IMG/VR virus record: IMGVR_UViG_2654587569_000010
Length of the DNA: 43,250 nucleotides
From: a virus
Lineage: Duplodnaviria; Heunggongvirae; Uroviricota; Caudoviricetes
Direction: 5' to 3' (one strand)
In this document: positions 1,237 to 42,153 of the stretch, one piece after another
Layout of the letters: every line of letters starts with the position of its first letter
Position numbering within the stretch: position 1 is the stretch's first letter
Made by a program: the position numbers and the translations under genes
The notes under the pieces: generated by a model
The model's database searches: none
What the model saw: the letters and a program-made list of their open reading frames with translations, nothing else
Told to the model about the DNA's origin: nothing

Positions 1237-3399
1237 TTATTCACATAAAGATATTGATGCCAATATAAACATTGCAAGTTCGTCATATCTTATACCATAA
1301 CTTTCACAAAAGATATCTATATTTCCAGTCATGTGTTCGCGATGCGTTTTATCGTGACACCAAAACCCATACTTACTAGGATCAAGTCCGTGCTTCCTCA
1401 TTATATTACCAACAGTTTGAGCTCCAACACCAAAATGCCACCTAGCACCATCAAATCCCTTTACCTCAACAGAATCCAGCATCTTAAACTTTTTAATATT
1501 ATCTTTTATTTCTAGTGCAGCTTTTTTTTCAGCAACATCAATGTCTGTTAGTTTTGTTTTCAACATTTCATTTGATGTATTTATCATTCCTGTAGTTGCA
1601 TATATTGTTTTATATCTCGCATCCGGCCCACCAATATCAAAAGCATTATCAATTTGTGGTGTAATTTTCCCATAATGAAAGAATAATTCATGCTCACTAT
1701 TACCTATAGCTACAGTATTCTGAGCGGCAATTACCCCACTACCGATAGCTACTGCGTTACTTCCGGTTGATTTTGTATTATCTCCGAGAAGGACGCAGTT
1801 TGTCACATCTGTAGCCTGCTCTGACACGTTACCAGAATTAGAACCTAAAAATACATTGAAAGATCCAGCCGTTACTTTAAACCCTGCATCGAATCCAATA
1901 CCAACATTATCAGATCCTGATGCAGAATATAGCGCCTCGTAACCTATAGCTGTATTATTATTACCTAACGCGTTGAAACCCGACTTAGCCCCTACCGCAA
2001 CACAATACTGGATAGACACCCCCGTAGGAAAACTGGAATTACCGCCACGTAACGCATATTCACCAAAAGCGGTGTTCTCATTACCAGCACTGTTGTGATA
2101 CAAGGCCTGCACACCTGCCGCAGTATTCCCAAATCCTGTTTTGTTATACCTGTTAGTATCATTACCAATACCAGTATTACCGTAGCCTGTTGTGTTTGCA
2201 CATAACGCAAAAACCCCAACCGCTACGTTATCAGAACCAGATACGTTAGCTCTTAGAGAATCAGCACCGTATGCACAATTGTTTTTACCAGTCTTATTGT
2301 TTTCCATAGACTGAATCCCAGACGCGGTATTTGCGTATCCTGTAGTGTTTGAGTGCAAACTCTTCCACCCATATGCGGTATTGTTAGCTCCTACGTTTCC
2401 ACCGCCTAATGAGTCTTTTCCAGCGGAAGTATTAGTATCATTGTTTCCGCTAACATTAAAAATAACGCTTCCTGATTTAACGATGCTGCCACTTCCTGTG
2501 TTTATTACTGATGGATTGGAAGGAATGAAAAATGACCATGAGTCATTTACTGTATGTCCAGTGGTTGAAGAAAAGTTTATCTTCAATCCACTTACGAAAA
2601 AATCCACCCCACCTGCAAGTATTACGATTGGTTGCTGAGATACACTGTCATCGATTGGGTTGTACACGTCTATCGTGTCACGCCATGTAACTCCATTATC
2701 TGTACTGAATTCAAGCTTATCAGGATTTGAAGCTTCTTTTATTCTTACAATTGCATTTAGATCTTGCTGTCCATTGTATATTCCTGACACGGTCATGTCG
2801 TTAACACCAGAGCCAGAATATTTAGTCTGGTAATTAATCACTACTATGCCAGGCCCCCAATATCTCTTATTTAAGTTAATATTATTTACATTATAAATAC
2901 CATCAGGAATGTATATGTCATTGAATTCCGATATCTCTGCATCGTTAAATGCCTGCGTATTGTTTGTTAATCCATCACCAATAGCACCAAAAAAAGTAAT
3001 AGGCTTCGAAACACCACCTATCAATCCTGCTCCACCAGATGATTCAAGCTCCAACCTTAATTGATCCGGCTCATACTTCAACACATTAGGAAAATAGAAC
3101 TGCTGTGCACCATATGCGTCATAAACAGCCATAGAATGGCCTTGCACAGTTACGAACTTTGCAATCTGCCCGTTATATACCGGGTATCCAGCAGCGTTAA
3201 TGATGATTGGTTGCGAAACAGGAACGTGAGAGCCGTCTTCGTTCTCCACATAAACCTGAATCTGGTTTTCAGGATTTACCGGGTCAGTGTCAATTTTACC
3301 GATATAAATTTTGCCATTGGCTACGGCTTTAAAAGAACGCGCCATAGTGAAGAGTTGCGAAGGCATCGATACGATCACATTGGCTGTAATGTCTGTCAT
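1237..3399 (-). CDS. tailspike: P22 gp9-like head-binding N-terminus, Gly/Asn/Thr/Ala-rich repeat middle, C-terminal intramolecular chaperone (S74-like) domain
   Basis: N-terminal 115 aa ([11 protein letters not shown]...[19 protein letters not shown]...[12 protein letters not shown]) matches P22 gp9; C-terminus ...[22 protein letters not shown]... resembles autocleaving chaperone of endosialidase-type fibers. Confidence 0.8.
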
Positions 3400-3531
3400 T
3401 TAATTTGCTCCAGATACAAGGAATCGCCGCAGCATGGCTACGGTTGGTATTTGTTGCATACCGAAACGGTACGATTGTTGATTTGTACAGTAGGTTTTAC
3501 GATGCCATTCCACCCATTTGGTGAGGCATTG

Positions 3532-3789
3532 ATGATGTACAGCAAATACGATGAGGCGCAGTTCCACTTGAGGCTTACGCACGAGTTGCACGCTAAGATT
3601 AAGCAGCGTGCAAAAATGAATAACAGGTCTATCAATTCCGAAATTGTGGCTACGATGGAAGAATCACTCTCCAAACCATCACCTGTAAGCGGGTATCGTG
3701 ATGAAGAAGAGAGGCTGGCCTCATTAATCTCGGAACGAGTAAAAGAAGTTGCGGCTGATATCCTTAGAAAAGAAAAAACCCGCGATTAA
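3532..3789 (+). CDS. mnt: Mnt-like ribbon-helix-helix repressor
   Basis: Only the last 85 aa of track ORF 3061..3789 are credible; QFHLRL...NNRSINSEIV...SLSKPSPVSGYRDEEERLA parallels P22 Mnt; GGTGAGG SD 5 nt before ATG at 3532. Confidence 0.7.
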   Translation: MMYSKYDEAQFHLRLTHELHAKIKQRAKMNNRSINSEIVATMEESLSKPSPVSGYRDEEERLASLISERVKEVAADILRKEKTRD

Positions 3790-3803
3790 GCGGGTTTAGT
3801 TGG

Positions 3804-4025
3804 TTAGTTATCAAAAAGTCCGTACGTTTCTTCTTCTTCAGGTGTAAGGGGAAGAATCTCTACTCTATCTATAGATACCTTTTCAATGTACCCATGAGGT
3901 CTACTTAAAATTAAAGCTCTCTCATGCCACAGAACTCCAAGAATGTGATACCTTCCAGCATCGCCTTTTACCCTGGCTCTTCCTTTGATTCTTGGCGGCA
4001 TAATGCCATATTTTTTCTTTGCCAT
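3804..4025 (-). CDS. hypothetical protein (73 aa), translationally coupled to upstream antirepressor
   Basis: ORF track; start ATG overlaps stop of 4025..4753 gene (TAATG). Confidence 0.4.
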   Translation of the reverse strand: MAKKKYGIMPPRIKGRARVKGDAGRYHILGVLWHERALILSRPHGYIEKVSIDRVEILPLTPEEEETYGLFDN

Positions 4026-4753
4026 TATGCAACATTACTCCCATGAATCAGGTGTTGTAGTGCTTTAACACCTTCCGCATTGTAGCGGAATGCTTCCACC
4101 TGTTTGCTGGAATGCGCAGATTTATCCAGGAAGAACTTACCGTACTGCTCAGTTTTGAGGTTGTTTGCGTTAGCAATGCGACCAATCTTGTTGGCCGTTA
4201 CTCCAAGCTGCTCTGCAACCTCCCCTGCTGAGTAGTAATGCTCTTCTATTGCTGGAAGAGGTATTGCATTAAAACCAACGATCGGGTTGATTATGCTTGC
4301 TGCCGCAGTCTGCTTTGCTTCCGGCGCAAGATTTGGCATCAAATCGAACAGATTGGTAACAGCTTCAACCGTCATTTTCAATGTTCGCGCCTGGCGATAC
4401 TCAACAAGTCCACTAGACGATTTACCGCTTTTAATGTGCGCTTCTTGCATACTTTCAAGTTGGTCTACAAGTGAGCGGCGAACAGCTTTAGATTCACGAG
4501 CAGCCACTCGAAGGGCTTGCTTAATTGACATAACAACTTTTTCAGAAGTTGTCTTGTTTGATTTTTGAACTACGAAAATTTCGTAGTGCTCACCTTCAAG
4601 TTCATCCTTAATGCGTGCAATAAAGTCGTTATTGCGGACTTCTTTTTCCCCGCACTGTCTACGAGCATGATTGACCATCTCTAACAGGTACTGGCTATCA
4701 ATGGTTTTATCCGTGACAACGGATCCGATGTTTGCTACATTCTTAAAAGTCAT
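4025..4753 (-). CDS. antirepressor-like protein (Rha-type N-terminus, KilA-C/Ant-C-like C-terminus)
   Basis: Track ORF 4025..4804 trimmed to ATG at 4753 with AAGGAA SD; C-terminal SAGEVAEQLGVTANKIGRIANANNL motif resembles phage antirepressor C domains. Confidence 0.55.
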   Translation of the reverse strand: MTFKNVANIGSVVTDKTIDSQYLLEMVNHARRQCGEKEVRNNDFIARIKDELEGEHYEIFVVQKSNKTTSEKVVMSIKQALRVAARESKAVRRSLVDQLESMQEAHIKSGKSSSGLVEYRQARTLKMTVEAVTNLFDLMPNLAPEAKQTAAASIINPIVGFNAIPLPAIEEHYYSAGEVAEQLGVTANKIGRIANANNLKTEQYGKFFLDKSAHSSKQVEAFRYNAEGVKALQHLIHGSNVA

Positions 4754-4841
4754 TAGGCATTCCTTATGTGGTAGTAAGGGTGTGACATAGGCCGCCAGCA
4801 GCACACTGGCGGTTTTCTTTTTGCGCCGTCCGGCGCACCAA

Positions 4842-5468
4842 TCAATGAATCCATTCCTCGCCGCGCAGTTTTGCCAGCATTGGCTGAGCGTTCTTTACGA
4901 CAAAATTGTTGGTATCAAGATTCTTCATTTCACGAAGAAGTGATTTCTTGGTTTCTTCTGACATGTAGCGAGTCTCATATGCAATATCGTAAATCCTTCC
5001 TGAAAGCTCAGAACCAATTTGCTTCATTCCTGGGTAGATGTGTTTGCACATTTGTTGACTCTTCTCCATCCACAATTGTAAGTAGCAGAGATTAACCAGT
5101 TCTTCGTCAGTAAACTGTTTTGCAATCGGTGAGCATTGTGCCTGCCGATCCAAAATATCCAGCACCCAACGGCGGAACTCTTTGGCTACCGGAGTGCGAG
5201 CAAACATCGCGATTAGGTGGGCACCGCGTAGTGAGAAAACTCGCACTTTTTTGCGATAATTTCCTGAGGTACTCACTTCGAGTACCTGAGTCATTCCGGC
5301 GCTAAACTCATCGCTATACTTGTTATAAATCATTGTTACTGCACGACTATTTGCGTATTTAAGTGCAGATGCAATATTAGATGATGTAAACCAAACACCA
5401 TGCATATCACGGGTGGGCACCAACTCAACTCCGTGGAAGTTGTAATCTGATTTTGCTACAATATTCAT
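4842..5468 (-). CDS. ant: antirepressor, Bro-N domain
   Basis: Track ORF trimmed to MNIVAKSDYNFHGVELV start (AAGGAAA SD); Bro-N-like N-terminus; sits downstream of arc as in P22 immI. Confidence 0.6.
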   Translation of the reverse strand: MNIVAKSDYNFHGVELVPTRDMHGVWFTSSNIASALKYANSRAVTMIYNKYSDEFSAGMTQVLEVSTSGNYRKKVRVFSLRGAHLIAMFARTPVAKEFRRWVLDILDRQAQCSPIAKQFTDEELVNLCYLQLWMEKSQQMCKHIYPGMKQIGSELSGRIYDIAYETRYMSEETKKSLLREMKNLDTNNFVVKNAQPMLAKLRGEEWIH

Positions 5469-5541
5469 GTTAGTTTCCTTGCATACGGTTACTGACATAG
5501 AGGCCCGGTTTGTGTTCACGCACTGCCGGGCTTCACTATTT

Positions 5542-5715
5542 TTACTGGGCATTAGCTCTTTCCTCTCTCAGGCTTTTAGCCAGTCGCTGCACAATCGCAG
5601 AGTTGATAGAAATTCCATCCATTTCAGCAACACGTCTAATCTCCTCCTTCATTCGCGCTGGCAAACGAAGCTGGAAACTTTGACTTTTACGACCTGTGTA
5701 AAGCACATCTTTCAT
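5542..5715 (-). CDS. arc: Arc-like ribbon-helix-helix repressor
   Basis: SFQLRLPARMKEEIRRVAEMDGISINSAIVQRL is an Arc/Mnt RHH fold; GGGAGGA SD upstream of ATG at 5715. Confidence 0.65.
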   Translation of the reverse strand: MKDVLYTGRKSQSFQLRLPARMKEEIRRVAEMDGISINSAIVQRLAKSLREERANAQ

Positions 5716-5742
5716 AAGTAATCCTCCCACAATGATGCCAAC

Positions 5743-5784
5743 TTGGTTCTAGAACCAATTTAACACCATTTATTTTGATGTCAA
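5743..5784 (-). promoter_or_regulatory. Pant-like promoter with overlapping operator palindrome
   Basis: On minus strand: -35 TTGACA, 16-nt spacer, -10 TAAATT, immediately followed by perfect 16-bp palindrome TTGGTTCTAGAACCAA (5743..5758), then SD and arc ATG. Confidence 0.55.
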
Positions 5785-5826
5785 GTTGGTGCTATTGTTT
5801 AGCGAACATCTTTACGTTGAGGTCAT

Positions 5827-6210
5827 ATGAGCAAGTTCCCTAGTCATGAAATGGATAGGTTCAATATCAGGCTTCCGGCAGGAATGCGGGATGCTATAGC
5901 CTTAAGAGCAAAGGAAAACGGCAGATCAATGAATACAGAACTAGTGTTTATCATTGATGATGCATTGAAGTCTCCGGTGCCTGCTGAGGTTGATAACTCC
6001 AGGATTATGAAGATTTACTCAAACCTCTCCGGGAACAGGCCATCAAACAAAGAAGAGTTTGAGCGGTGGGAGAATGAGCTAGTCAAAGCAATTTTCTACT
6101 TACTAGATAGCATCAGTTCTCATTCGCAAATGTATCAAGCTCTCAGGAGCTTAAGGCAAGATGCATATAAAAATGTTTTTGGCGATGATGCTGAAGACAT
6201 CCAGTTTTGA
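5827..6210 (+). CDS. RHH-domain regulator in the Mnt position (divergent from arc-ant)
   Basis: N-terminus FNIRLPAGMRDAIALRAKENGRSMNTELV is an Arc/Mnt-type RHH; 127 aa with extra C-terminal domain. Confidence 0.6.
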   Translation: MSKFPSHEMDRFNIRLPAGMRDAIALRAKENGRSMNTELVFIIDDALKSPVPAEVDNSRIMKIYSNLSGNRPSNKEEFERWENELVKAIFYLLDSISSHSQMYQALRSLRQDAYKNVFGDDAEDIQF

Positions 6211-6254
6211 AGACCATTTCATCTGGTATCCTGCGCAAAACTAAGGAGGTTGGT

Positions 6255-6644
6255 GTGAAGCGATTTCTTGCTGCTATGTTCTTATTCATATCTTTTGGGG
6301 CTACAGCAGAGTGCTGGGTCGTTGGAGATATGCGCGGAATAAGCTATTCAGAACGAAATAATTTCCATCCGGAAGAAGATGGTTTTAGTGGAACATTCAT
6401 CATTAAGACAAGCGGTGAAGATGCCAGCATCACATATTCTGGGACAGATGCGGGCGGCATGGCTTACAAAGCATTGTCTAAAAACTCCATCATAGGAATC
6501 GGCGCGAATGGCGAAACTCAACGCGTTATCGACTCATGGGTAATACATCCTACTGGAACAGTTTTAATGTCAAAAACCATTTCCGGTTATGGAAATATGG
6601 ATTCAACCAAAGCTTTTGTTGGAAAAGTAAAAAGAAAATGTTAA
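6255..6644 (+). CDS. secreted protein of unknown function (signal peptide)
   Basis: GTG start preceded by AAGGAGG SD; KRFLAAMFLFISFGATA-ECW looks like a cleavable signal peptide. Confidence 0.5.
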   Translation: MKRFLAAMFLFISFGATAECWVVGDMRGISYSERNNFHPEEDGFSGTFIIKTSGEDASITYSGTDAGGMAYKALSKNSIIGIGANGETQRVIDSWVIHPTGTVLMSKTISGYGNMDSTKAFVGKVKRKC

Positions 6645-6665
6645 TGATAGGATTATGGCCCTACA

Positions 6666-6851
6666 TCAACAGGTTCCGCGCCCCTGAGTAATTCTATTGC
6701 GGATTTGCTTTTTACGGTGGTTTAAGCTGGAGAGCTTTTCTTCTACTTCTGATATTTGCGCATCCAGATCTTTAAGCTCAAGATCTGAAAGTCGCTGGTC
6801 AAGCAGGGTTTGGTTCAACTCAATGTTGTTCAGACGTTCTTCTATGGTCAT
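6666..6851 (-). CDS. small coiled-coil protein (61 aa), hypothetical
   Basis: ORF track only; heptad-like LxxLxxL pattern. Confidence 0.3.
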   Translation of the reverse strand: MTIEERLNNIELNQTLLDQRLSDLELKDLDAQISEVEEKLSSLNHRKKQIRNRITQGRGTC

Positions 6852-6876
6852 ATTGTTACCTTAGTGGGAGGTTGGC

Positions 6877-7233
6877 GTGAATGGTCAAACAATCATCATA
6901 ATATTACTGAGCTTAATAGTTGCTAAGTTATATCCCCAAATCGGTTATATTTCCCTGGTTGTCTGTACCTTGGTGGTCTTGGTATACGGGATATATAAAG
7001 TTTTTTCTTGGCTATTGCGTTTTAATGCTGCAAGAAAAACTATTTGGATCATATTATTAGCAGCTATTGCAGCAACACCAGTGGGAATAGGGTATATCAT
7101 AGATATTTTTTACCCTTCAAAAACAAAGGCATGGGTCATCGTCATTTGCTTTTACATCGCAGGTGTTTTTTTATTTGCTTTTCATTGGTGCTTTGTAAAG
7201 ATTAATGAATACATATCAAGGGAAAAAAACTAA
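6877..7233 (+). CDS. small inner-membrane protein (predicted 3-4 TM helices), candidate superinfection-exclusion gene
   Basis: GTG start with GGGAGG SD; highly hydrophobic segments; occupies the sieA position of P22 between gene 16 and immI. Confidence 0.5.
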   Translation: MNGQTIIIILLSLIVAKLYPQIGYISLVVCTLVVLVYGIYKVFSWLLRFNAARKTIWIILLAAIAATPVGIGYIIDIFYPSKTKAWVIVICFYIAGVFLFAFHWCFVKINEYISREKN

Positions 7234-7256
7234 TATATGCCGTCCATGGCATTTAG

Positions 7257-9167
7257 TCACTTCTGTGTTGCCTCAGTGGCAAGCAGCGGTCTGATGGCAT
7301 TTGCAGCGTTACTTAATGCTCTTTCATAGGCTGGCGTTCCTGCTTTGGTGTTTGCCAGACGTAAGAGAGCATTCCTTGCTGCTTTGGACTCATACAAGCG
7401 CATGATTGCACCGAAACCAGCCTCAAGTCCCAGTGATACACCAAGGGTTGCAGTTGCGCCAATCGTTCTAATCCTGTTAGCTTGCGATTGTCCTGTCTGT
7501 GTTACTACATTTGCGGCGTCCGACCTTGCTGTTTGCTGTAGAACTTCATGAAGAGCATCAAGCTCTTTCATGTGTCTCCCACTGAATATAGTGTTATAGA
7601 TCTGACCGTCAGATTGCGACTTCAACTTATTTAACTCGGTAAGAAATTTTGTTGGCGAGTCTCCTGCTTTTTCTGCAATCTTGCTGATATAAGCAGCACG
7701 CATAGCGTTCTTTCCATCTTCACTAAGAGCAGGCCATATCCTCTTAATATCTGATGGTTTTCTGCTGAATACAACGCTGTTTATTATCTCTGGAGTAAAC
7801 TCTTTTTTAGCTTTGTTGAGATTATTCGCAATCCTTTTATTGAGAACCTTATTGAAGACGTTGGAGTAATCAGAGTTTGCTTTGACGTATCTGGCGGCCT
7901 CTCCAGCCCCCAAATACCGCGCTGCGTTATTCCTCAAATCTGCCCCCATTGCCCTCTCCACGGCATCAGTTGCGGCTTTCGCGCTATTAGGAAAAACCAT
8001 GGCATCCCCCTGAATACTTTCCCTCAAGGCTGACCGCAACTCTCTCAATAGACCAAAATCTATATCTGGTTTAGCAAGTTCTTCTCGCAAATCGGATAAC
8101 CCGCGAATCAAATCCTTATTTGCCACTTTCCCAAGCCTGTTAGCTCTGGTAAGTACGTTGTCGATAACCTTAATAGATTTTGATGTGTCAACAGGTGTGT
8201 CTCCCATTTTGGTTGTAATGTCTTCAATAACTCTTCCGGCCGAATCCTTCCTTGACTTCAGAGAACCATACAGATCGTCAACAACAACTGATGGGCTATA
8301 TTCACCATATTTCTCAAGCTGTTTTTTAACTAGCTGACTTCTTTTTGCATACTGCTCTGCTCGCTTTGATCCCGTCCCGAGCAAAGCCCCCTCAGCATCC
8401 TGAGTAAGGCCACGAGTGAAAGCATTTTTCGGCGGGATTACATCAGATGTCATTGGTGTCACGCCCATCGATTCTGATGTGGCAATTTTCTTCGCCACTT
8501 CTGGTGCAATATCACCTTTAAAGGCAGTTATTCCACGCTCAAGCCCTTTTGCAACAGTATTAACAGCACCACCTGTTAGCATGCCAACACCTATATCTGT
8601 TGCCAGTTTTCCCGCATCATTTTTCTCACTGTTTGCGGCGAGCGATCCGACTGCGTTTTCTGCCAGAAGACGGGCTGCGCCTTGAGTAATTCGACCAGCA
8701 AGTGTTGGCGCCTGAGTTGAAGCACCGCCAACGCCAACAGTAGCCAGGTAAGGCAATGCCTCCGCAAACACCCTACCTTCTGTCGTTTGTGGAGTCAGAG
8801 CACCTTGCTGAAGTCCAAACGCCTGCTCTAATCCCTGAGTTGTTACTCGTGGCGCTGGTTGATATGTTCCATCACCAATACCGAGTTTACCGCCAGCCCA
8901 TGCTGCCGCGCTTGTTACAGCATCGGCAACTGATGCCGGTATGTTTGCCACGTTTACGCCAGCCTGCACCAGTCCGCGACCAGTCTCTTTTACTGCCTCG
9001 CCAAGGTCAGACATAAATCCATCTTGCTGTTCTAAAGGCTGCTCTTGATTCTGAGTTGGTGGATTACTGGAAGACAGCATCCTAGCAATGCGGCGCGCGC
9101 CATCAGTATCACCTGCAGCATCAGCATTCCTTAACGCCGTCATCAATTGTTCACGACTATAGGCCAT
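7257..9167 (-). CDS. DNA ejection/injection protein (P22 gp16-like)
   Basis: 636 aa, position and size match P22 gene 16; Gly/Ala-rich. Confidence 0.75.
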   Translation of the reverse strand: MAYSREQLMTALRNADAAGDTDGARRIARMLSSSNPPTQNQEQPLEQQDGFMSDLGEAVKETGRGLVQAGVNVANIPASVADAVTSAAAWAGGKLGIGDGTYQPAPRVTTQGLEQAFGLQQGALTPQTTEGRVFAEALPYLATVGVGGASTQAPTLAGRITQGAARLLAENAVGSLAANSEKNDAGKLATDIGVGMLTGGAVNTVAKGLERGITAFKGDIAPEVAKKIATSESMGVTPMTSDVIPPKNAFTRGLTQDAEGALLGTGSKRAEQYAKRSQLVKKQLEKYGEYSPSVVVDDLYGSLKSRKDSAGRVIEDITTKMGDTPVDTSKSIKVIDNVLTRANRLGKVANKDLIRGLSDLREELAKPDIDFGLLRELRSALRESIQGDAMVFPNSAKAATDAVERAMGADLRNNAARYLGAGEAARYVKANSDYSNVFNKVLNKRIANNLNKAKKEFTPEIINSVVFSRKPSDIKRIWPALSEDGKNAMRAAYISKIAEKAGDSPTKFLTELNKLKSQSDGQIYNTIFSGRHMKELDALHEVLQQTARSDAANVVTQTGQSQANRIRTIGATATLGVSLGLEAGFGAIMRLYESKAARNALLRLANTKAGTPAYERALSNAANAIRPLLATEATQK

Positions 9168-15785: not shown

Positions 15786-16679
15786 TTATTTTTTTGCCTT
15801 TTTAGCGGCGAAATACGGCGTCCAGTCACCAGTTTCCAGCGCCTTGGCTTTCAATTTGTCGAGGTTATTGATTACTGCGCCGTTGCTCCCCTTAACTGTC
15901 GGGGTTGTGGCTGCCGTGGTTTTTGCTTTTGGCATGATTCTGGCCTTCGATTCGATACGTTCCAGCAGACGACCAATTGCTACGGAGTTGGTAGCTTCTG
16001 CCAGTTGCTTGCGCAGTTCAGCGTTGCGACCGAGTGCCAGAACAACGATTTCCGGCTTCTCTGACTCAAGAAGGATCATGTCCTGAATGTGAACAGGAAC
16101 ATCTTCGCGTACAGCCTGCTCTGCATCCTGGTAACCAGCCACTTTCAGTGCTTTTACTCTATGCATGTAATTGGCTGCTTTCTGCTGAAGCGTTGCGGTA
16201 CGCGCCTCTTCCTCTCGTTTCCGCTCTCGTACTTGCTCCTGGTATTTGCCGTTATCCTCTGCCCACTTAGCCATGCGTTGCTGATAGATTTCTTCATCGA
16301 AACCGATGTCCTCATCATCCAGTTTTGGCATTCGCGGTGGTTGAGTGATTACCGGCTGCTGCTCGACGGGTTTCTGAGACTGACGCATCAGCTCTTTCAG
16401 CTCACGGTCTTTCTCTTTAATCGTCTTGCGCAGGTGTTTTACCAGTCCATGCTCTGCGCCATCTTCGCTGGTTGGCGAATCCAGCTTTTCGTCACCAAAG
16501 TAGAATTCCTGTTCTGATTCGTCGTCATCAGTGTCAGTAGCTTCCTCTGCATCATTTCCTGAGGACTCACTGCCATCTGCTGTTTCGACTTCTTCAGCCA
16601 GTTCGACATCATCAGGAATCTGCTCTGACGCGTCGGTTTCGATTTCAACTTCTGGTGTGTTTTCTGCCATCTGGTCCAT
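15786..16679 (-). CDS. scaffolding protein (P22 gp8-like)
   Basis: 297 aa, acidic N-terminus, charged helical protein between portal and coat. Confidence 0.8.
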   Translation of the reverse strand: MDQMAENTPEVEIETDASEQIPDDVELAEEVETADGSESSGNDAEEATDTDDDESEQEFYFGDEKLDSPTSEDGAEHGLVKHLRKTIKEKDRELKELMRQSQKPVEQQPVITQPPRMPKLDDEDIGFDEEIYQQRMAKWAEDNGKYQEQVRERKREEEARTATLQQKAANYMHRVKALKVAGYQDAEQAVREDVPVHIQDMILLESEKPEIVVLALGRNAELRKQLAEATNSVAIGRLLERIESKARIMPKAKTTAATTPTVKGSNGAVINNLDKLKAKALETGDWTPYFAAKKAKK

Positions 16680-31348: not shown

Positions 31349-31377
31349 ATAATACGACATGTACTTTTGGAATGCAA
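31349..31377 (-). promoter_or_regulatory. PR-like promoter for cro
   Basis: Minus strand -35 TTGCAT, 17-nt spacer, -10 TATTAT upstream of cro SD. Confidence 0.45.
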
Positions 31378-31439
31378 ACAAAAAATACATCTTGTGCATG
31401 GATGGTTTTAGTACAGAGCGTAATAATAAGGATATGAAA

Positions 31440-32093
31440 ATGAAATGGTATGAACTGGCTAGATCCAGAATGAAAGAACTCGGCATAACTCAAGAGAAGT
31501 TAGCTGAAGAGCTTGGTATGACGCAGGGTGGAATTGGTCACTGGTTGCGCGGATCTCGTCATCCATCTCTTGACGAGATTGGTGTGGTGTTTAAATACCT
31601 TGGTATTGATAACGTCTCATTCAACCACGACGGTACATTTTCACCTGTTGGCGAATACTCATCTGCCCCCGTTAAAAAACAATATGAGTACCCTGTTTTT
31701 TCTCATGTTCAGGCCGGGATGTTCTCGCCTGAGCTTAGAACCTTTACCAAAGGCGATGCGGAGAGATGGGTCAGCACAACCAAAAAAGCCAGTGATTGTG
31801 CGTTTTGGCTTGAAGTTGAAGGTAATTCCATGACCGCACCAACAGGATCCAAGCCAAGCTTTCCTGACGGGATGTTAATTCTCGTTGACCCTGAGCAGGC
31901 TGTTGAGCCAGGTGATTTCTGCATAGCCAGACTTGGTGGTGACGAGTTTACCTTCAAGAAACTGATCAGGGATAGCGGTCAGGTGTTCCTACAACCACTA
32001 AACCCGCAATATCCAATGATCCCATGCAATGATAGCTGTTCCGTAGTAGGGAAAGTTATCGCCAGCCAGTGGCCTGAAGAGACATTTAGTTAA
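31440..32093 (+). CDS. cI: CI-type prophage repressor (HTH + S24 LexA-like autopeptidase)
   Basis: C-terminal [13 protein letters not shown]...GMLILVDPE...FKKL...[11 protein letters not shown] matches P22 C2 / lambda CI; start chosen at ATG 31440 with AAGGA SD. Confidence 0.85.
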
Positions 32094-33024: not shown

Positions 33025-33160
33025 CCACGCTCACGCTGGTTTTTAATGACATAAATAACCGTATTTACTACCGCAAGCCACGCAGTGAAATGGGTGTGAC
33101 TTGTGTTGGTCGCCAGAAAATGAAATTAGGCAGCAAACCACTTATTTGAGAGGAATTAAT

Positions 33161-33784
33161 ATGTCATCAATCCGCTTAACTACGAGAATGAAAGAGGAAA
33201 TCGCTCGTAACGCTTTAATTAAGTCTGGGGTTTTCACTGAACTTGAAGAAGTAACAAAGTTAAAGAACCAGCTTGCACTTGACGCCAGAGTTATTGCGTT
33301 TGGCGGGAAAAAGAAAACCGAAGAAGTGGACCAGCTGGCATCAAAGTTAATGGCTGCAAGTGAGGAACTTCAAAAGCTTGGATGTTCATTTTACTCATGC
33401 GATGTCAGTTCAAGTTCGATTTATCTGACTGTATCTGGAAGAAGGGTTGGCTGGCATTCATACGGAAAAGACGGCAACGGTGAAGATATATTGCTCCCTA
33501 CCCCCGACAAAGATAAATGCATGTTTGACGCAGAACACAAAATAACAAAAAGGTTTGATGAAATCTGCGCATTGCAACAAAAACTTGAAGCCAGGAAAAA
33601 GGATATCGAATCAAATGTATGGGCTGCTTTGAACTCAGTCACAACAGTTAAGCGACTTATTGAGGTCTGGCCTGAAAGCAAAGAGTTGCTACCAAAAGAA
33701 GCAGATAAAGCAAGTGCAGCACTTCCTGCTTTACGGGTAGAAGATTTGAATAAGATGATTGGACTTCCTTCCGAGGCCGCATAG
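33161..33784 (+). CDS. hypothetical protein (207 aa)
   Basis: Track ORF trimmed to ATG with GAGAGGA SD. Confidence 0.5.
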   Translation: MSSIRLTTRMKEEIARNALIKSGVFTELEEVTKLKNQLALDARVIAFGGKKKTEEVDQLASKLMAASEELQKLGCSFYSCDVSSSSIYLTVSGRRVGWHSYGKDGNGEDILLPTPDKDKCMFDAEHKITKRFDEICALQQKLEARKKDIESNVWAALNSVTTVKRLIEVWPESKELLPKEADKASAALPALRVEDLNKMIGLPSEAA

Positions 33785-40702: not shown

Positions 40703-40866
40703 TCCCGCCGTACACTAACGTCTACCATTGTCTATAAACCCCATGTAACCATATAAAAATAAAGAGATTTTATTCTCATGACGTCCATTGCCGTCTATTG
40801 AAATCAAGTAAATCTATGGGGCATAATTGGGGGCATTGCTGGTTCGATTGTAAATGTGCCCCCAAT

Positions 40867-42153
40867 ATGTCCAGAAATACCCTCAACAAATTAACAGACC
40901 GTCAGTGCAAAGCAGCTAAGCCACGAGACAAAACTTATAAATTGTCTGATGGTGGTGGTCTTTATCTTGAAGTATCCCAGACCGGGTCGAAGTATTGGCG
41001 AATGAAGTATCGCCGCCCATCAGATAAGAAAGAAGACAGACTTGCTTTTGGTGTATATCCAACCATTAGCTTACAAGACGCCAGAGAAAAACGAGACAAC
41101 GCCAAAAAGTTGTTAGTCAAGGGGATAGATCCCAAAGCAGAGCAAAGAGCAGCAAAAGCAGAAGAAAAAGGTGCATTCACTTTTGAGACAATAGGACGTC
41201 AATGGGTTGAAAGCCACCAGATGTGGAACGAAGCCCACCGAAAACGCGTACTTAGAAGCCTTGAAATGTATATTTTCCCTCACATTGGCACTTCGGATAT
41301 TCGCAAACTGGAGGCGATGACAATTTTACCTTTGTTTAAGAAGGTAGATGACGCCGGGAAACACGATACAGCCAACCGACTTAAACAACGAGTTAAGGAC
41401 ATCATACATAGCGCCCGTCTGAGCGGCATTAAGACAGAAATCATCACGAATGATCTCGATGTCCGGTTAATGCAATATGAAACTAAGCATCATGCCGCAC
41501 TACATCCCAGAGATTTACCAGACTTTTTCACTCGATTGGGCAGCTTTAAAGGTAATCCTCTTACCCGCCTTGCCATTGAGCTAACCATGTTGACCTTTGT
41601 TCGTTCAAGCGAGTTAAGGTTTGCCCGTTGGAAAGAGTTTGACCTTGATCGGGCTGAGTGGATTATCCCTAAAAAAAGAGAGCCTATCGATGGTGTGAGG
41701 TTTTCCACCCGTGGCACAAAGACGGGAAAAGACGAACATATCGTGCTTCTTAGCCGTCAGGCTGTTTCTATTGTAAAGCAGTTGAGAGAACTAAGCGGAA
41801 GCTACGATGTTGTGTTTCCGAATGAAAGAAACACCAAAGGCGTGATGAGTGAAAACACGGTAAACAAGGCATTACGCTTAATGGGCTATAACACGCAAGA
41901 GGACGTAACTGGACATGGATTCCGTGCCACAGCCTGTAGTTCCCTGATGGAGTCCGGTTTGTGGCAGGAGGACGCAGTAGAGCGCCAGATGAGCCACAAA
42001 GAATATAAAGACGTTAAAAGAGCCTACAAGCACAAGGCTGATTACTTAGAAGAGCGCAAACTAATGCTTCAATGGTGGGCAGATTATCTGGACGCCAATC
42101 GAGAAATACACATAAGCCCTTACGAGTTCGGAAGGAGAACACGCCGTGACTAA
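40867..42153 (+). CDS. int: tyrosine integrase, P4 type (second copy, divergent from 1..1158)
   Basis: MSRNTLNKLTDRQCKAAKPRDKTYKLSDGGGLYLEV P4-type N-terminus; C-terminal HGFRAT...MSH...AYKHKADY retains R, H and Y; track ORF 40798.. has a TTG-extended N-terminus. Confidence 0.8.
   Translation: MSRNTLNKLTDRQCKAAKPRDKTYKLSDGGGLYLEVSQTGSKYWRMKYRRPSDKKEDRLAFGVYPTISLQDAREKRDNAKKLLVKGIDPKAEQRAAKAEEKGAFTFETIGRQWVESHQMWNEAHRKRVLRSLEMYIFPHIGTSDIRKLEAMTILPLFKKVDDAGKHDTANRLKQRVKDIIHSARLSGIKTEIITNDLDVRLMQYETKHHAALHPRDLPDFFTRLGSFKGNPLTRLAIELTMLTFVRSSELRFARWKEFDLDRAEWIIPKKREPIDGVRFSTRGTKTGKDEHIVLLSRQAVSIVKQLRELSGSYDVVFPNERNTKGVMSENTVNKALRLMGYNTQEDVTGHGFRATACSSLMESGLWQEDAVERQMSHKEYKDVKRAYKHKADYLEERKLMLQWWADYLDANREIHISPYEFGRRTRRD

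Follow-up and report, generated by a model that had tools for sequence, protein, structure and literature searches.

A Probable Secondary-Immunity Region of a P22-like Escherichia coli Prophage: Comparative Analysis of Its Repressors, Candidate Operators, and Antirepressor Genes

The immI region of phage P22 is the textbook model for repressor–operator recognition (Arc and Mnt) and for antisense control (sar), and its natural variants have hardly been analyzed. Here, we describe what is likely to be such a variant, located at positions 3532–6210 of a 43,250-nucleotide stretch of viral DNA (record IMGVR_UViG_2654587569_000010; the window hereafter means this whole stretch), in terms of its gene content, homologies, promoter and terminator motifs, and comparative covariation. 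The window is a P22-like prophage, with an integrase at 1–1158, a tailspike gene at 1237–3399 (minus strand), a gene-16-type ejection protein at 7257–9167 (minus strand), and a C2/CI-type repressor (HTH_3 and Peptidase_S24 domains) at 31359–32093. The region 3532–6210 sits between the gene 16 and tailspike homologues, within the late operon and in the same order as in annotated P22, where this slot holds sieA, mnt, Pmnt/Pant, O-arc, O-mnt, arc, sar, ant, and t-ant. The slot has been named the “ant moron” (Villafane et al. 2008) and is hypervariable, with ten gene sets among sixteen P22-like genomes, some comprising mnt alone (PMC2629481). The most probable explanation is that a P22-like (Lederbergvirus) prophage of E. 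coli has its secondary immunity (immI, the ant moron) here, built from two independently inherited cassettes.

Gene Content and Setting of the Region

An earlier note on this DNA had listed six open reading frames (ORFs) with their orientations, a TAATG overlap coupling two of them, and a perfect 16-bp palindrome, all of which are present in the sequence:

5827–6210, plus strand: ribbon–helix–helix (RHH) repressor of 127 amino acids (aa) in the mnt position (Pfam Arc, E 1e-16; PHROG 3178, full length)
5743–5758: 16-bp perfect palindrome TTGGTTCTAGAACCAA in an O-mnt-equivalent position, candidate operator of the 127-aa RHH protein
5542–5715, minus strand: Arc homologue of 57 aa, probably starting at ATG 5715, which follows a GGAGG (42% identity to P22 Arc; Pfam Arc, E 1e-11)
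4842–5468, minus strand: first antirepressor, Ant, 208 aa, with Bro-N (2e-10) and P22AR_C (4e-14) domains; likely start ATG 5468
4025–4753, minus strand: second antirepressor-type protein, 242 aa, with a P1 Ant-like N-terminal domain, a helical linker, and a MerR-like winged-helix C-terminal domain
3804–4025, minus strand: 73-aa ORF whose ATG overlaps the stop codon of the 242-aa gene (TAATG)
3532–3789, plus strand: distal Mnt homologue, 85 aa, starting at 3532 or 3535 (Pfam Arc, E 4e-15; PHROG 795, full length)

E. coli 55989 and MB06231 carry this arrangement with matching annotated gene starts; for the 242-aa gene, the 55989 annotation gives ATG 4753, the most likely start. All three RHH proteins match Pfam Arc (PF03869), scoring 55.8, 44.8, and 60.9 bits (cut-off, 20.4 bits). 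The description of the locus as an immI-like region in the P22 position holds, in that an RHH gene and a Pant-like promoter point away from each other, with arc (which opens the ant operon) and ant behind the promoter, between the homologues of gene 16 and of the tailspike gene. The locus is real, non-random, and of a well-known kind rather than a new system; of 5426 complete E. coli genomes, 809 contain parts of the region and 19 contain 80% or more of it (at the megablast level). The combination of three RHH proteins with two antirepressor-type genes is annotated in genomes, and we found no description of it in the literature searched. A PADLOC search over the proteins of the region gave no defense-system match.

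Only the N-terminal 42 aa (residues 12–53) of the 127-aa protein match P22 Mnt, with 50% identity, whereas the distal protein is 47% identical to P22 Mnt over 73 aa, the C-terminal part included, such that the distal gene is the closer P22 Mnt homologue, as the earlier note had proposed. The protein in the mnt position is therefore not a full Mnt homologue (RHH domain plus C-terminal tetramerization domain), the full homologue being encoded by the distal gene. The 127-aa protein, of which there are ∼20 full-length clusters in Enterobacterales, has an RHH domain, a linker, and a long helical C-terminal domain that differs from that of Mnt; in its AlphaFold2 (AF2) model, helices at 59–69 and 75–121 (predicted local distance difference test score, pLDDT, 83–95) form a predicted helical hairpin with a 47-residue helix. 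This domain would suit oligomerization, as in Mnt, although it is not homologous to the Mnt C-terminal domain.

Candidate Operators and Their Repressors

The control region of the ant operon is the 111-bp divergent-promoter region 5716–5826, in which the palindrome is accompanied by two further elements:

5757–5784, minus strand: Pant-like promoter, TTGACA (5784–5779), 16-bp spacing, and a TG-extended TAAATT (5762–5757), 10 of 12 consensus matches
5786–5798, plus strand: third half-site TTGGTGCTA (site B; half-site 5786–5794), found by a half-site search and overlapping a TG-extended −10 element, TGcTATTGT (5790–5798)

The Pant-like promoter has the best promoter score in the region (15.6), and the palindrome overlaps its −10 hexamer and expected start, as O-mnt does at P22 Pant. 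TTGGTTCTAGAACCAA is the sole perfect 16-bp palindrome in the window; by chance, a mean of 0.69 perfect 16-bp palindromes is expected in 43 kb, and at least one occurred in 98 of 200 shuffles. We consider the palindrome non-random, then, not because of its occurrence alone but because of its position in the divergent-promoter region and its conservation across diverged alleles.

This conservation was followed in 57 fetched loci, all encoding relatives of the 127-aa protein and nearly all with the same layout, in which arc and ant are divergent from the RHH gene. The hexamers of the Pant-like promoter are kept across alleles, being identical among alleles of the window type and also in L042 and L063, which are more distant; the remaining allele groups keep the TTGACA −35 and differ in the −10. 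Site A (just downstream of the −10) and site B (adjoining the −35) are direct repeats spaced 43 bp apart, related to each other within each allele group and switching together between groups; site A of the window is the palindrome itself. The −10-like element equivalent to TGcTATTGT is kept in all alleles compared and is a putative promoter element of the 127-aa RHH gene; its overlap with site B suggests autoregulation of the promoter of this repressor.

By inference from these comparisons, the palindrome would be the operator of the 127-aa protein, because it tracks the DNA-reading β-strand of this protein rather than that of Arc or of the distal Mnt. The sequence TTGGTnCTAGnACCAA is present in all 20 distinct control regions that go with the RHH strand FN[IV]RLP, across two Arc strand types, and in none of the seven regions where the same Arc strand (FQLRLP) accompanies other RHH strand types. 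RHH variants with a common N-terminal domain and another C-terminal half (for example, that of E. coli 55989) have an identical control region.

An alternative is that Arc recognizes the palindrome and that the 127-aa protein acts elsewhere, for instance only at the half-site by the −35. The center of the palindrome (TCTAGA, with CTAG/TAGA) does resemble the annotated P22 O-arc half-sites (TAGA boxes), and a search of the control region for an Arc operator returned only a weak shared motif (ATGATGYCA / TGRTGTCA) that overlaps the −35 and abuts the repeats, and is not established as such. However, Arc proteins with the identical strand SQSFQLRLP (81–88% identical overall) stand beside operators of a very different sequence in L043, L045, L047, and L050; the palindrome is retained alongside the Arc strand NVVFNLRLP provided that the RHH strand is DRFN[IV]RLP; and the site lies in the O-mnt rather than the O-arc position relative to the promoter. 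We consider recognition by Arc improbable on this evidence, and continue with the 127-aa protein as the candidate ligand. The promoters of the Gifsy antirepressors carry a LexA box; there is none at the Pant-like promoter, and one match with a single mismatch at 3475–3490 is within chance expectation and not conserved.

The distal mnt gene has an upstream region of its own:

3458–3472: candidate operator of the distal Mnt, ATACCGAAACGGTAC (TACC-N5-GGTA), in the P22 O-mnt position directly upstream of the Pmnt −35
3475–3503, plus strand: predicted distal mnt promoter, −35 TTGTTG (3475–3480), 17 bp, −10 TACGAT (3498–3503)
3481–3508, minus strand: degenerate Pant-like promoter toward the tailspike gene, −35 ATGGCA (3508–3503), 16 bp, TG-extended −10 ACAAAT (3486–3481)

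The predicted mnt promoter has the top plus-strand score in the intergenic region, an RBS (ribosome-binding site) GGTGAGG precedes the ATG, and the promoter block is kept in Sf101, VSe13, JEP4, and MB06231, with the geometry of P22 Pmnt. As in P22, the upstream region comprises the operator, a Pmnt −35 overlapping the complement of the Pant −10, and a Pmnt −10 that has one base in common with the Pant −35 complement. The Pant remnant, which may be active, scores weakly; it matches P22 Pant position for position and its nTGGCA −35 is kept in all tailspike-adjacent mnt loci. Operator and β-strand covary across clades: the QFHLRL strand of the window clade goes with TACC-N5-GGTA (3458–3472 here), the PQFNLRL strand with AGACCACAGTGGTCT, and the HFNFRM strand of P22 with GGTCCACCGTGGACC. 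This covariation points to 3458–3472 as the predicted binding site of the distal Mnt.

We fetched 80 loci with the distal Mnt protein, and in all 80 the gene adjoins and diverges from the tailspike gene; in about 25 of them (Sf101 and VSe13 being examples) it is the only or nearly the only gene between the tailspike gene and gene 16. The protein is 95–100% conserved over loci with differing neighbors. The distal Mnt occurs without the palindrome in JEP4, the palindrome occurs without the distal Mnt in L009, L011, and L013, and none of the 80 loci has an ant operon under the distal-Mnt operator type.

These data bear on the reading, suggested by the earlier note, that the two repressors flanking the antirepressor genes jointly maintain one switch, both acting on the single Pant region (at the palindrome, for example, or at neighboring sites) so that repression would be redundant. 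Both proteins are Mnt-like in their RHH domains and their genes co-occur in many loci, and the three related half-sites and further repeats of the control region could accommodate more than one protein. Against this, the upstream region of the distal gene has the layout of P22 Pmnt/O-mnt, its palindrome being a different one, which covaries with the β-strand of the distal Mnt itself, and the distal-Mnt operator motif has no copy near Pant, in 5716–5826. Moreover, the distal Mnt of JEP4 stands beside another, palindrome-free ant control cassette, that of about 25 loci lacks any ant genes, and the palindrome is found both without the distal Mnt (L009, L011, and L013) and with a different Mnt clade (L010). 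Joint control is thus quite improbable, and the distal Mnt instead appears as a separate, always tailspike-adjacent cassette with an operator of its own. The overlap of the palindrome with the Pant-like promoter (at the −10), stated in the earlier note, stands; a role as a target shared by both proteins is not supported, as the palindrome tracks the 127-aa RHH protein and not the distal Mnt.

A further possibility is that the distal mnt is decaying and functionless, left over from an older immI; the same has been suggested for the mnt-like gene in phage L. Several phages, L and ST64T among them, have mnt but neither arc nor ant, and a degrading remnant was considered by the authors (PMC8022706); here, the adjacent Pant-like hexamers are degenerate, and the mnt-position gene of the related prophage Kapi1 has no detectable expression in lysogens (PMC12922286). 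However, the ratio of nonsynonymous to synonymous substitution rates (dN/dS) of the distal mnt is 0.02 at a dS of about 1.1 (versus VSe13), which indicates strong purifying selection, and the protein remains conserved amid its differing neighbors. In addition, the promoter, RBS, and operator blocks are kept down to Sf101, and operator and β-strand covary across clades, all of which makes decay very improbable.

We propose that this second cassette (about 3400–3797) would be a stand-alone Mnt with its own P22-like Pmnt/O-mnt and without action on the palindrome, most likely repressing its own overlapping promoter pair, one member of which is the weak Pant remnant directed into the tailspike gene. 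Its role may lie in the dosage of the tailspike, which has been discussed for P22, or in trans-immunity against incoming phages. Just upstream of the tailspike start, at 3431–3445 (minus strand), lies one copy of the P22-type “boundary sequence” ACCGTAGCCATGCT; in P22, two copies of this sequence flank a relic of the 242-aa gene that is described below, and the CUS-3 annotation names it bsq1.

Antirepressor Genes and Antisense Units

The operon read from the Pant-like promoter contains further features that were additional to those in the earlier note, including a sar homologue and a likely second antisense unit:

5466–5545, plus strand: sar homologue, a likely antisense RNA over the ant ribosome-binding site, with a TG-extended −10 TGcTACAAT (5454–5462) within the first ant codons
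4713–4822, plus strand: predicted second sar-like antisense unit, promoter GTGACA (4713–4718), 17 bp, TGcTACATT (4736–4741), RNA about 4748–4822
4569–4587: perfect palindrome ACTACGAAAATTTCGTAGT within the 242-aa gene
3776–3797: hairpin between the convergent mnt gene and ant operon, AAACCCGC-TTAATC-GCGGGTTT and then TTTCTTTTCT on the minus strand

Two antirepressor-type genes are present, as the earlier note had it. Ant belongs to PHROG 245 (“anti-repressor Ant”) and shares with P22 Ant the C-terminal domain alone (P22AR_C; 29% identity, E 1e-9), its N-terminal domain being Bro-N rather than P22_AR_N. The 242-aa protein matches PHROG 1726 (“anti-repressor”) over its full length and belongs to a family of about 2100 database proteins, mostly named hypothetical. 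Its residues 14–106 (93 aa) are 69% identical (E 6e-40) to residues 112–203 of the P1-type Ant1/Ant2 of phage RCS47, which have an ANT/KilAC domain where the 242-aa protein has a winged helix, the C-terminal halves being unrelated in sequence. The AF2 model (pLDDT 72) has an α/β N-terminal domain, long helices, and a C-terminal winged helix of the MerR/RacA/Par DNA-binding type, with weak HTH_17 matches, and its neighbors among viral models (BFVD) are named antirepressor, KilAC, or KilA. The label “KilA-C-type” used in the earlier note is not borne out, in that neither the 242-aa protein nor 29 homologues match PF03374 (ANT/KilAC) at E values up to 5, while P1-type Ant1 and KilA do match. Searches of Pfam and NCBIfam returned nothing significant for the 242-aa and 73-aa proteins, and a sequence search of the PDB returned no match for the 242-aa family. 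“Second antirepressor” is nevertheless a probable reading of the 242-aa gene, well supported by the homology of its N-terminal domain.

The 73-aa ORF that follows belongs to PHROG 4977 (unknown function), with only eight protein clusters, from E. coli and Salmonella; it is missing from several otherwise identical loci, and its dN/dS of about 0.07 rests on few underlying changes. For the 242-aa gene, the dN/dS comparison with JEP4 was disregarded, an indel making it invalid. The operon ends at the 3797–3776 hairpin, which has perfect 8-bp arms and is a strong intrinsic terminator of the minus-strand operon in the terminator scan.

The arc–ant spacer aligns with annotated P22 sar and with 12 other alleles, and the sar homologue and P22 sar have in common a TG-extended −10, a 5′ stem–loop with ACUGAC, and a terminator hairpin with a U-run. 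Compensatory changes occur in 5 of the 12 pairs of the terminator helix (14 alleles), and the fold, with two stem–loops as in P22 sar, has a z-score of −6.75 relative to shuffled sequences. On these comparisons, the unit in the spacer is a sar homologue, despite the silence of Rfam, a permissive search of which over 3000–7500 matched no family, sar included.

The second unit has a predicted start at about 4748, just inside the 242-aa coding region, two stem–loops like sar, and a terminator hairpin (4789–4815) followed by TTTTCTTTTT that is strong in the terminator scan. In 33 distinct 5′ regions of homologues of the 242-aa gene, its promoter hexamers, spacing, and hairpin are kept; the synonymous positions within the −35 never vary, while the adjacent synonymous position does. 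Likeness to unrelated upstream contexts stops exactly at its terminator (a mosaic boundary), and in the most diverged pair (L057/L058) the hairpin sequence differs and the structure is the same. A covariance model built from the 14 sar alleles finds only the arc–ant copy (72.9 bits) and does not detect the second unit, all other matches having E > 1. The second unit is therefore treated as a predicted analogue of sar and not as a homologue, on the basis of analogy and conservation. If so, a cis-antisense RNA would gate each of the antirepressor genes, which represent the two classic families of P22 Ant and P1 Ant, as the arrangement suggests.

It is possible, though in our view doubtful, that Ant is the only antirepressor here and that the 242-aa and 73-aa genes are cargo (a DNA-binding regulator, host takeover, or inter-phage conflict). 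The winged helix with its weak HTH_17 matches and the lack of ANT/KilAC or P22AR Pfam domains are in line with cargo, as is the fact that the 242-aa cassette travels alone behind several different upstream genes, in phiKp_30 without ant; the 73-aa ORF likewise has no relatives of known role. The full-length PHROG 1726 match, the names of the BFVD neighbors, the 69% identity of residues 14–106 to P1-type Ant1/Ant2 (which are annotated from experimental work), and the same (predicted) sar-like gating as for ant all argue against it, and we retain the reading of the 242-aa gene as a second antirepressor gene.

Within this gene, the 9-pair helix of the palindrome ACTACGAAAATTTCGTAGT is kept over 13 sequence variants, including the P22 relic. 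Four pairs are changed on both sides (21 cells), without any G–U pairs; none of 500 shuffles reaches the observed covariation value, and slid controls collapse. In the protein, amino acids are replaced in complementary pairs, with His CAC and Val GTG in place of Thr ACC and Gly GGT or vice versa. The palindrome is also found in the P22 relic (L006 5085–5110) and in P1-type ant1 (RCS47, L227 2016–2040), and a recent P22 small-RNA survey reports nothing at the relic. The absence of G–U pairs hints less at an RNA helix than at a DNA site to which a symmetric protein binds, and one may speculate that this protein is the winged helix of the 242-aa protein itself. In other E. coli, isolated copies of the palindrome-bearing segment (∼40 bp) occur in unannotated spacers in unrelated prophage contexts (L226 2501–2538 in E1648; H119–H120). 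A second hairpin in the 242-aa gene (4533–4552) is present in the window and in the P22 relic; it is not conserved in other homologues and was dropped.

Unlikely, though of interest, is an undescribed second antirepressor gate, formed by a P1-Ant-like gene that travels as a cassette with its own cis-antisense RNA and an embedded, selected palindrome forcing paired amino acid changes, to which an orphan Mnt adds a second, independent Mnt specificity. In that case, the internal palindrome would act in the control of immI or of the tailspike, either by binding a protein or as an RNA or DNA structure, and would have been overlooked through decades of studies on P22 and P1.

Proposed Working of the Region and Relation to Known Switches

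Taking these assignments together, cassette 1 (about 3776–6210 and beyond) would work like mnt/arc/sar/ant of P22, with binding partners, RNA expression, and antirepressor activity that we infer from sequence comparison. In the lysogen, the 127-aa RHH protein would be made from a weak rightward promoter, together with a secreted protein encoded downstream, and would bind both the palindrome over the start of the leftward promoter and the related half-site by the −35, which overlaps its own −10, leaving the operon silent. When the repressor is absent, as on infection, the leftward promoter would fire, and arc, ant, the 242-aa gene, and the 73-aa ORF would be transcribed, up to the terminator at 3797–3776. 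Arc would subsequently shut off transcription of the operon, and the two cis-antisense RNAs would limit translation, sar at the RBS of ant and the predicted unit at the RBS of the 242-aa gene. The antirepressors themselves are expected to inactivate lambdoid C2/CI-type repressors, such as the one encoded at 31359–32093.

We note several points that weigh against this reading. Every protein-to-site assignment for this allele is comparative; the candidate operator and the RHH gene are adjacent, so that their co-inheritance could in part be linkage, and the loci compared are not phylogenetically independent. As the search for an Arc operator gave no established site, the palindrome could serve Arc as well. 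The 127-aa RHH gene has a weak promoter, ambiguous in that there are two candidates, and the Pant remnant by the tailspike gene scores poorly as a promoter. Rfam is silent for both antisense RNAs, and the second unit, which escapes the sar covariance model, has a fold z-score of only −1.9. Finally, the logic of P22 is not always transferable, since the mnt-position gene of Kapi1 is not detectably expressed in lysogens (PMC12922286).

The likeness to P22 immI extends to the slot between genes 16 and 9, the RHH gene facing away from a strong promoter for arc and then ant, a candidate operator over the promoter start, the terminator before the tailspike gene, the C-terminal domain of Ant (P22AR_C), and a sar homologue with its TG-extended −10 in the first ant codons and its two-hairpin shape. 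In contrast to P22, the mnt-position protein resembles Mnt in the RHH domain alone, its C-terminal domain being different, longer, and helical; the true Mnt homologue lies by the tailspike gene with its own operator, and the operator sequences differ; the promoter of the repressor gene is outside the Pant spacer, whereas in P22 it is inside; and Bro-N replaces P22_AR_N, with two extra operon genes and a predicted second antisense RNA. The distal mnt and its upstream block correspond to the lone-mnt ant morons (L, ST64T, Sf101, IME10, and VSe13), forming a unit that stands alone in Sf101 and VSe13. The region shows the same rapid mosaic flux as has been described for the locus (PMC2629481), but the lone-mnt unit is here joined to a complete second switch.

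With P1 immI (c4, icd, and ant1/ant2), the region shares the N-terminal domain of the 242-aa protein (69% identical to Ant1/Ant2), the same internal palindrome in the shared coding segment, and the gating of antirepressor synthesis by an antisense RNA (predicted here). It differs in that the C-terminal domain of P1 Ant is ANT/KilAC as against a MerR-like winged helix here, and in that c4 is a processed, trans-acting RNA upstream of icd and not a cis-antisense RNA over an RBS. No c4- or icd-related sequence was identified in the region, where the short ORFs were not directly compared with icd.

Escherichia phage JEP4 (MT740315) shares 3387–5548 of the window, that is, mnt, the 73-aa ORF, the 242-aa gene, ant, and the sar terminator, at 93–99% nucleotide identity, but in place of arc, the palindrome, and the 127-aa RHH gene it has an ORF of 57 aa together with a divergent one annotated “repressor protein C2” (L001 6090–7080). 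The JEP4 control cassette is an alternative control of the same antirepressor operon. The E. coli 55989 prophage has the same gene order and the palindrome, with the RHH N-terminal domain fused to a different C-terminal part.

P22 itself keeps a relic of the 242-aa gene, 32 codons between t-ant and gene 9 (L006 5060–5155; record 16059–16154) that are 59% identical to residues 47–78 of the 242-aa protein (E 5e-10). The pairing of ant with a P1-Ant-like gene therefore predates the present arrangement of P22, and P22 immI looks like a reduced form of a larger ant operon, which makes it doubtful that the locus in the window is an “expanded” immI as the earlier note had suggested.

Read in this way, the switch is modular: the operator travels with the N-terminal domain of the divergent repressor, while arc, the antirepressor genes, and the tailspike-side Mnt are exchanged independently. 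The natural operator/β-strand pairs (three of the Mnt type and several of the 127-aa family) could serve for reading the RHH recognition code. Such modules decide the mutual induction of co-resident prophages in E. coli, where variants of this arrangement are common.

Beyond the 127-aa gene, the ORF at 6256–6644 (plus strand), in the position of P22 orf59a/sieA, has a signal-peptide-like N-terminus, belongs to PHROG 2651 (unknown function), and is probably cotranscribed with the 127-aa gene in the lysogen. It is followed by a 61-aa coiled-coil-like ORF at 6666–6851 (minus strand; PHROG 7586) and a 118-aa hydrophobic ORF at 6877–7233 (plus strand), and each of the three is a candidate for a role in lysogenic conversion or exclusion. 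A second integrase (40798–42153, plus strand; Arm-DNA-bind_3, Phage_int_M, and Phage_integrase domains) lies at the far end of the window and suggests an adjacent second integrative element, and an early-region ORF at 33101–33784 (plus strand) matches Pfam Nmad5 (nucleotide modification associated domain 5; E 2e-69).

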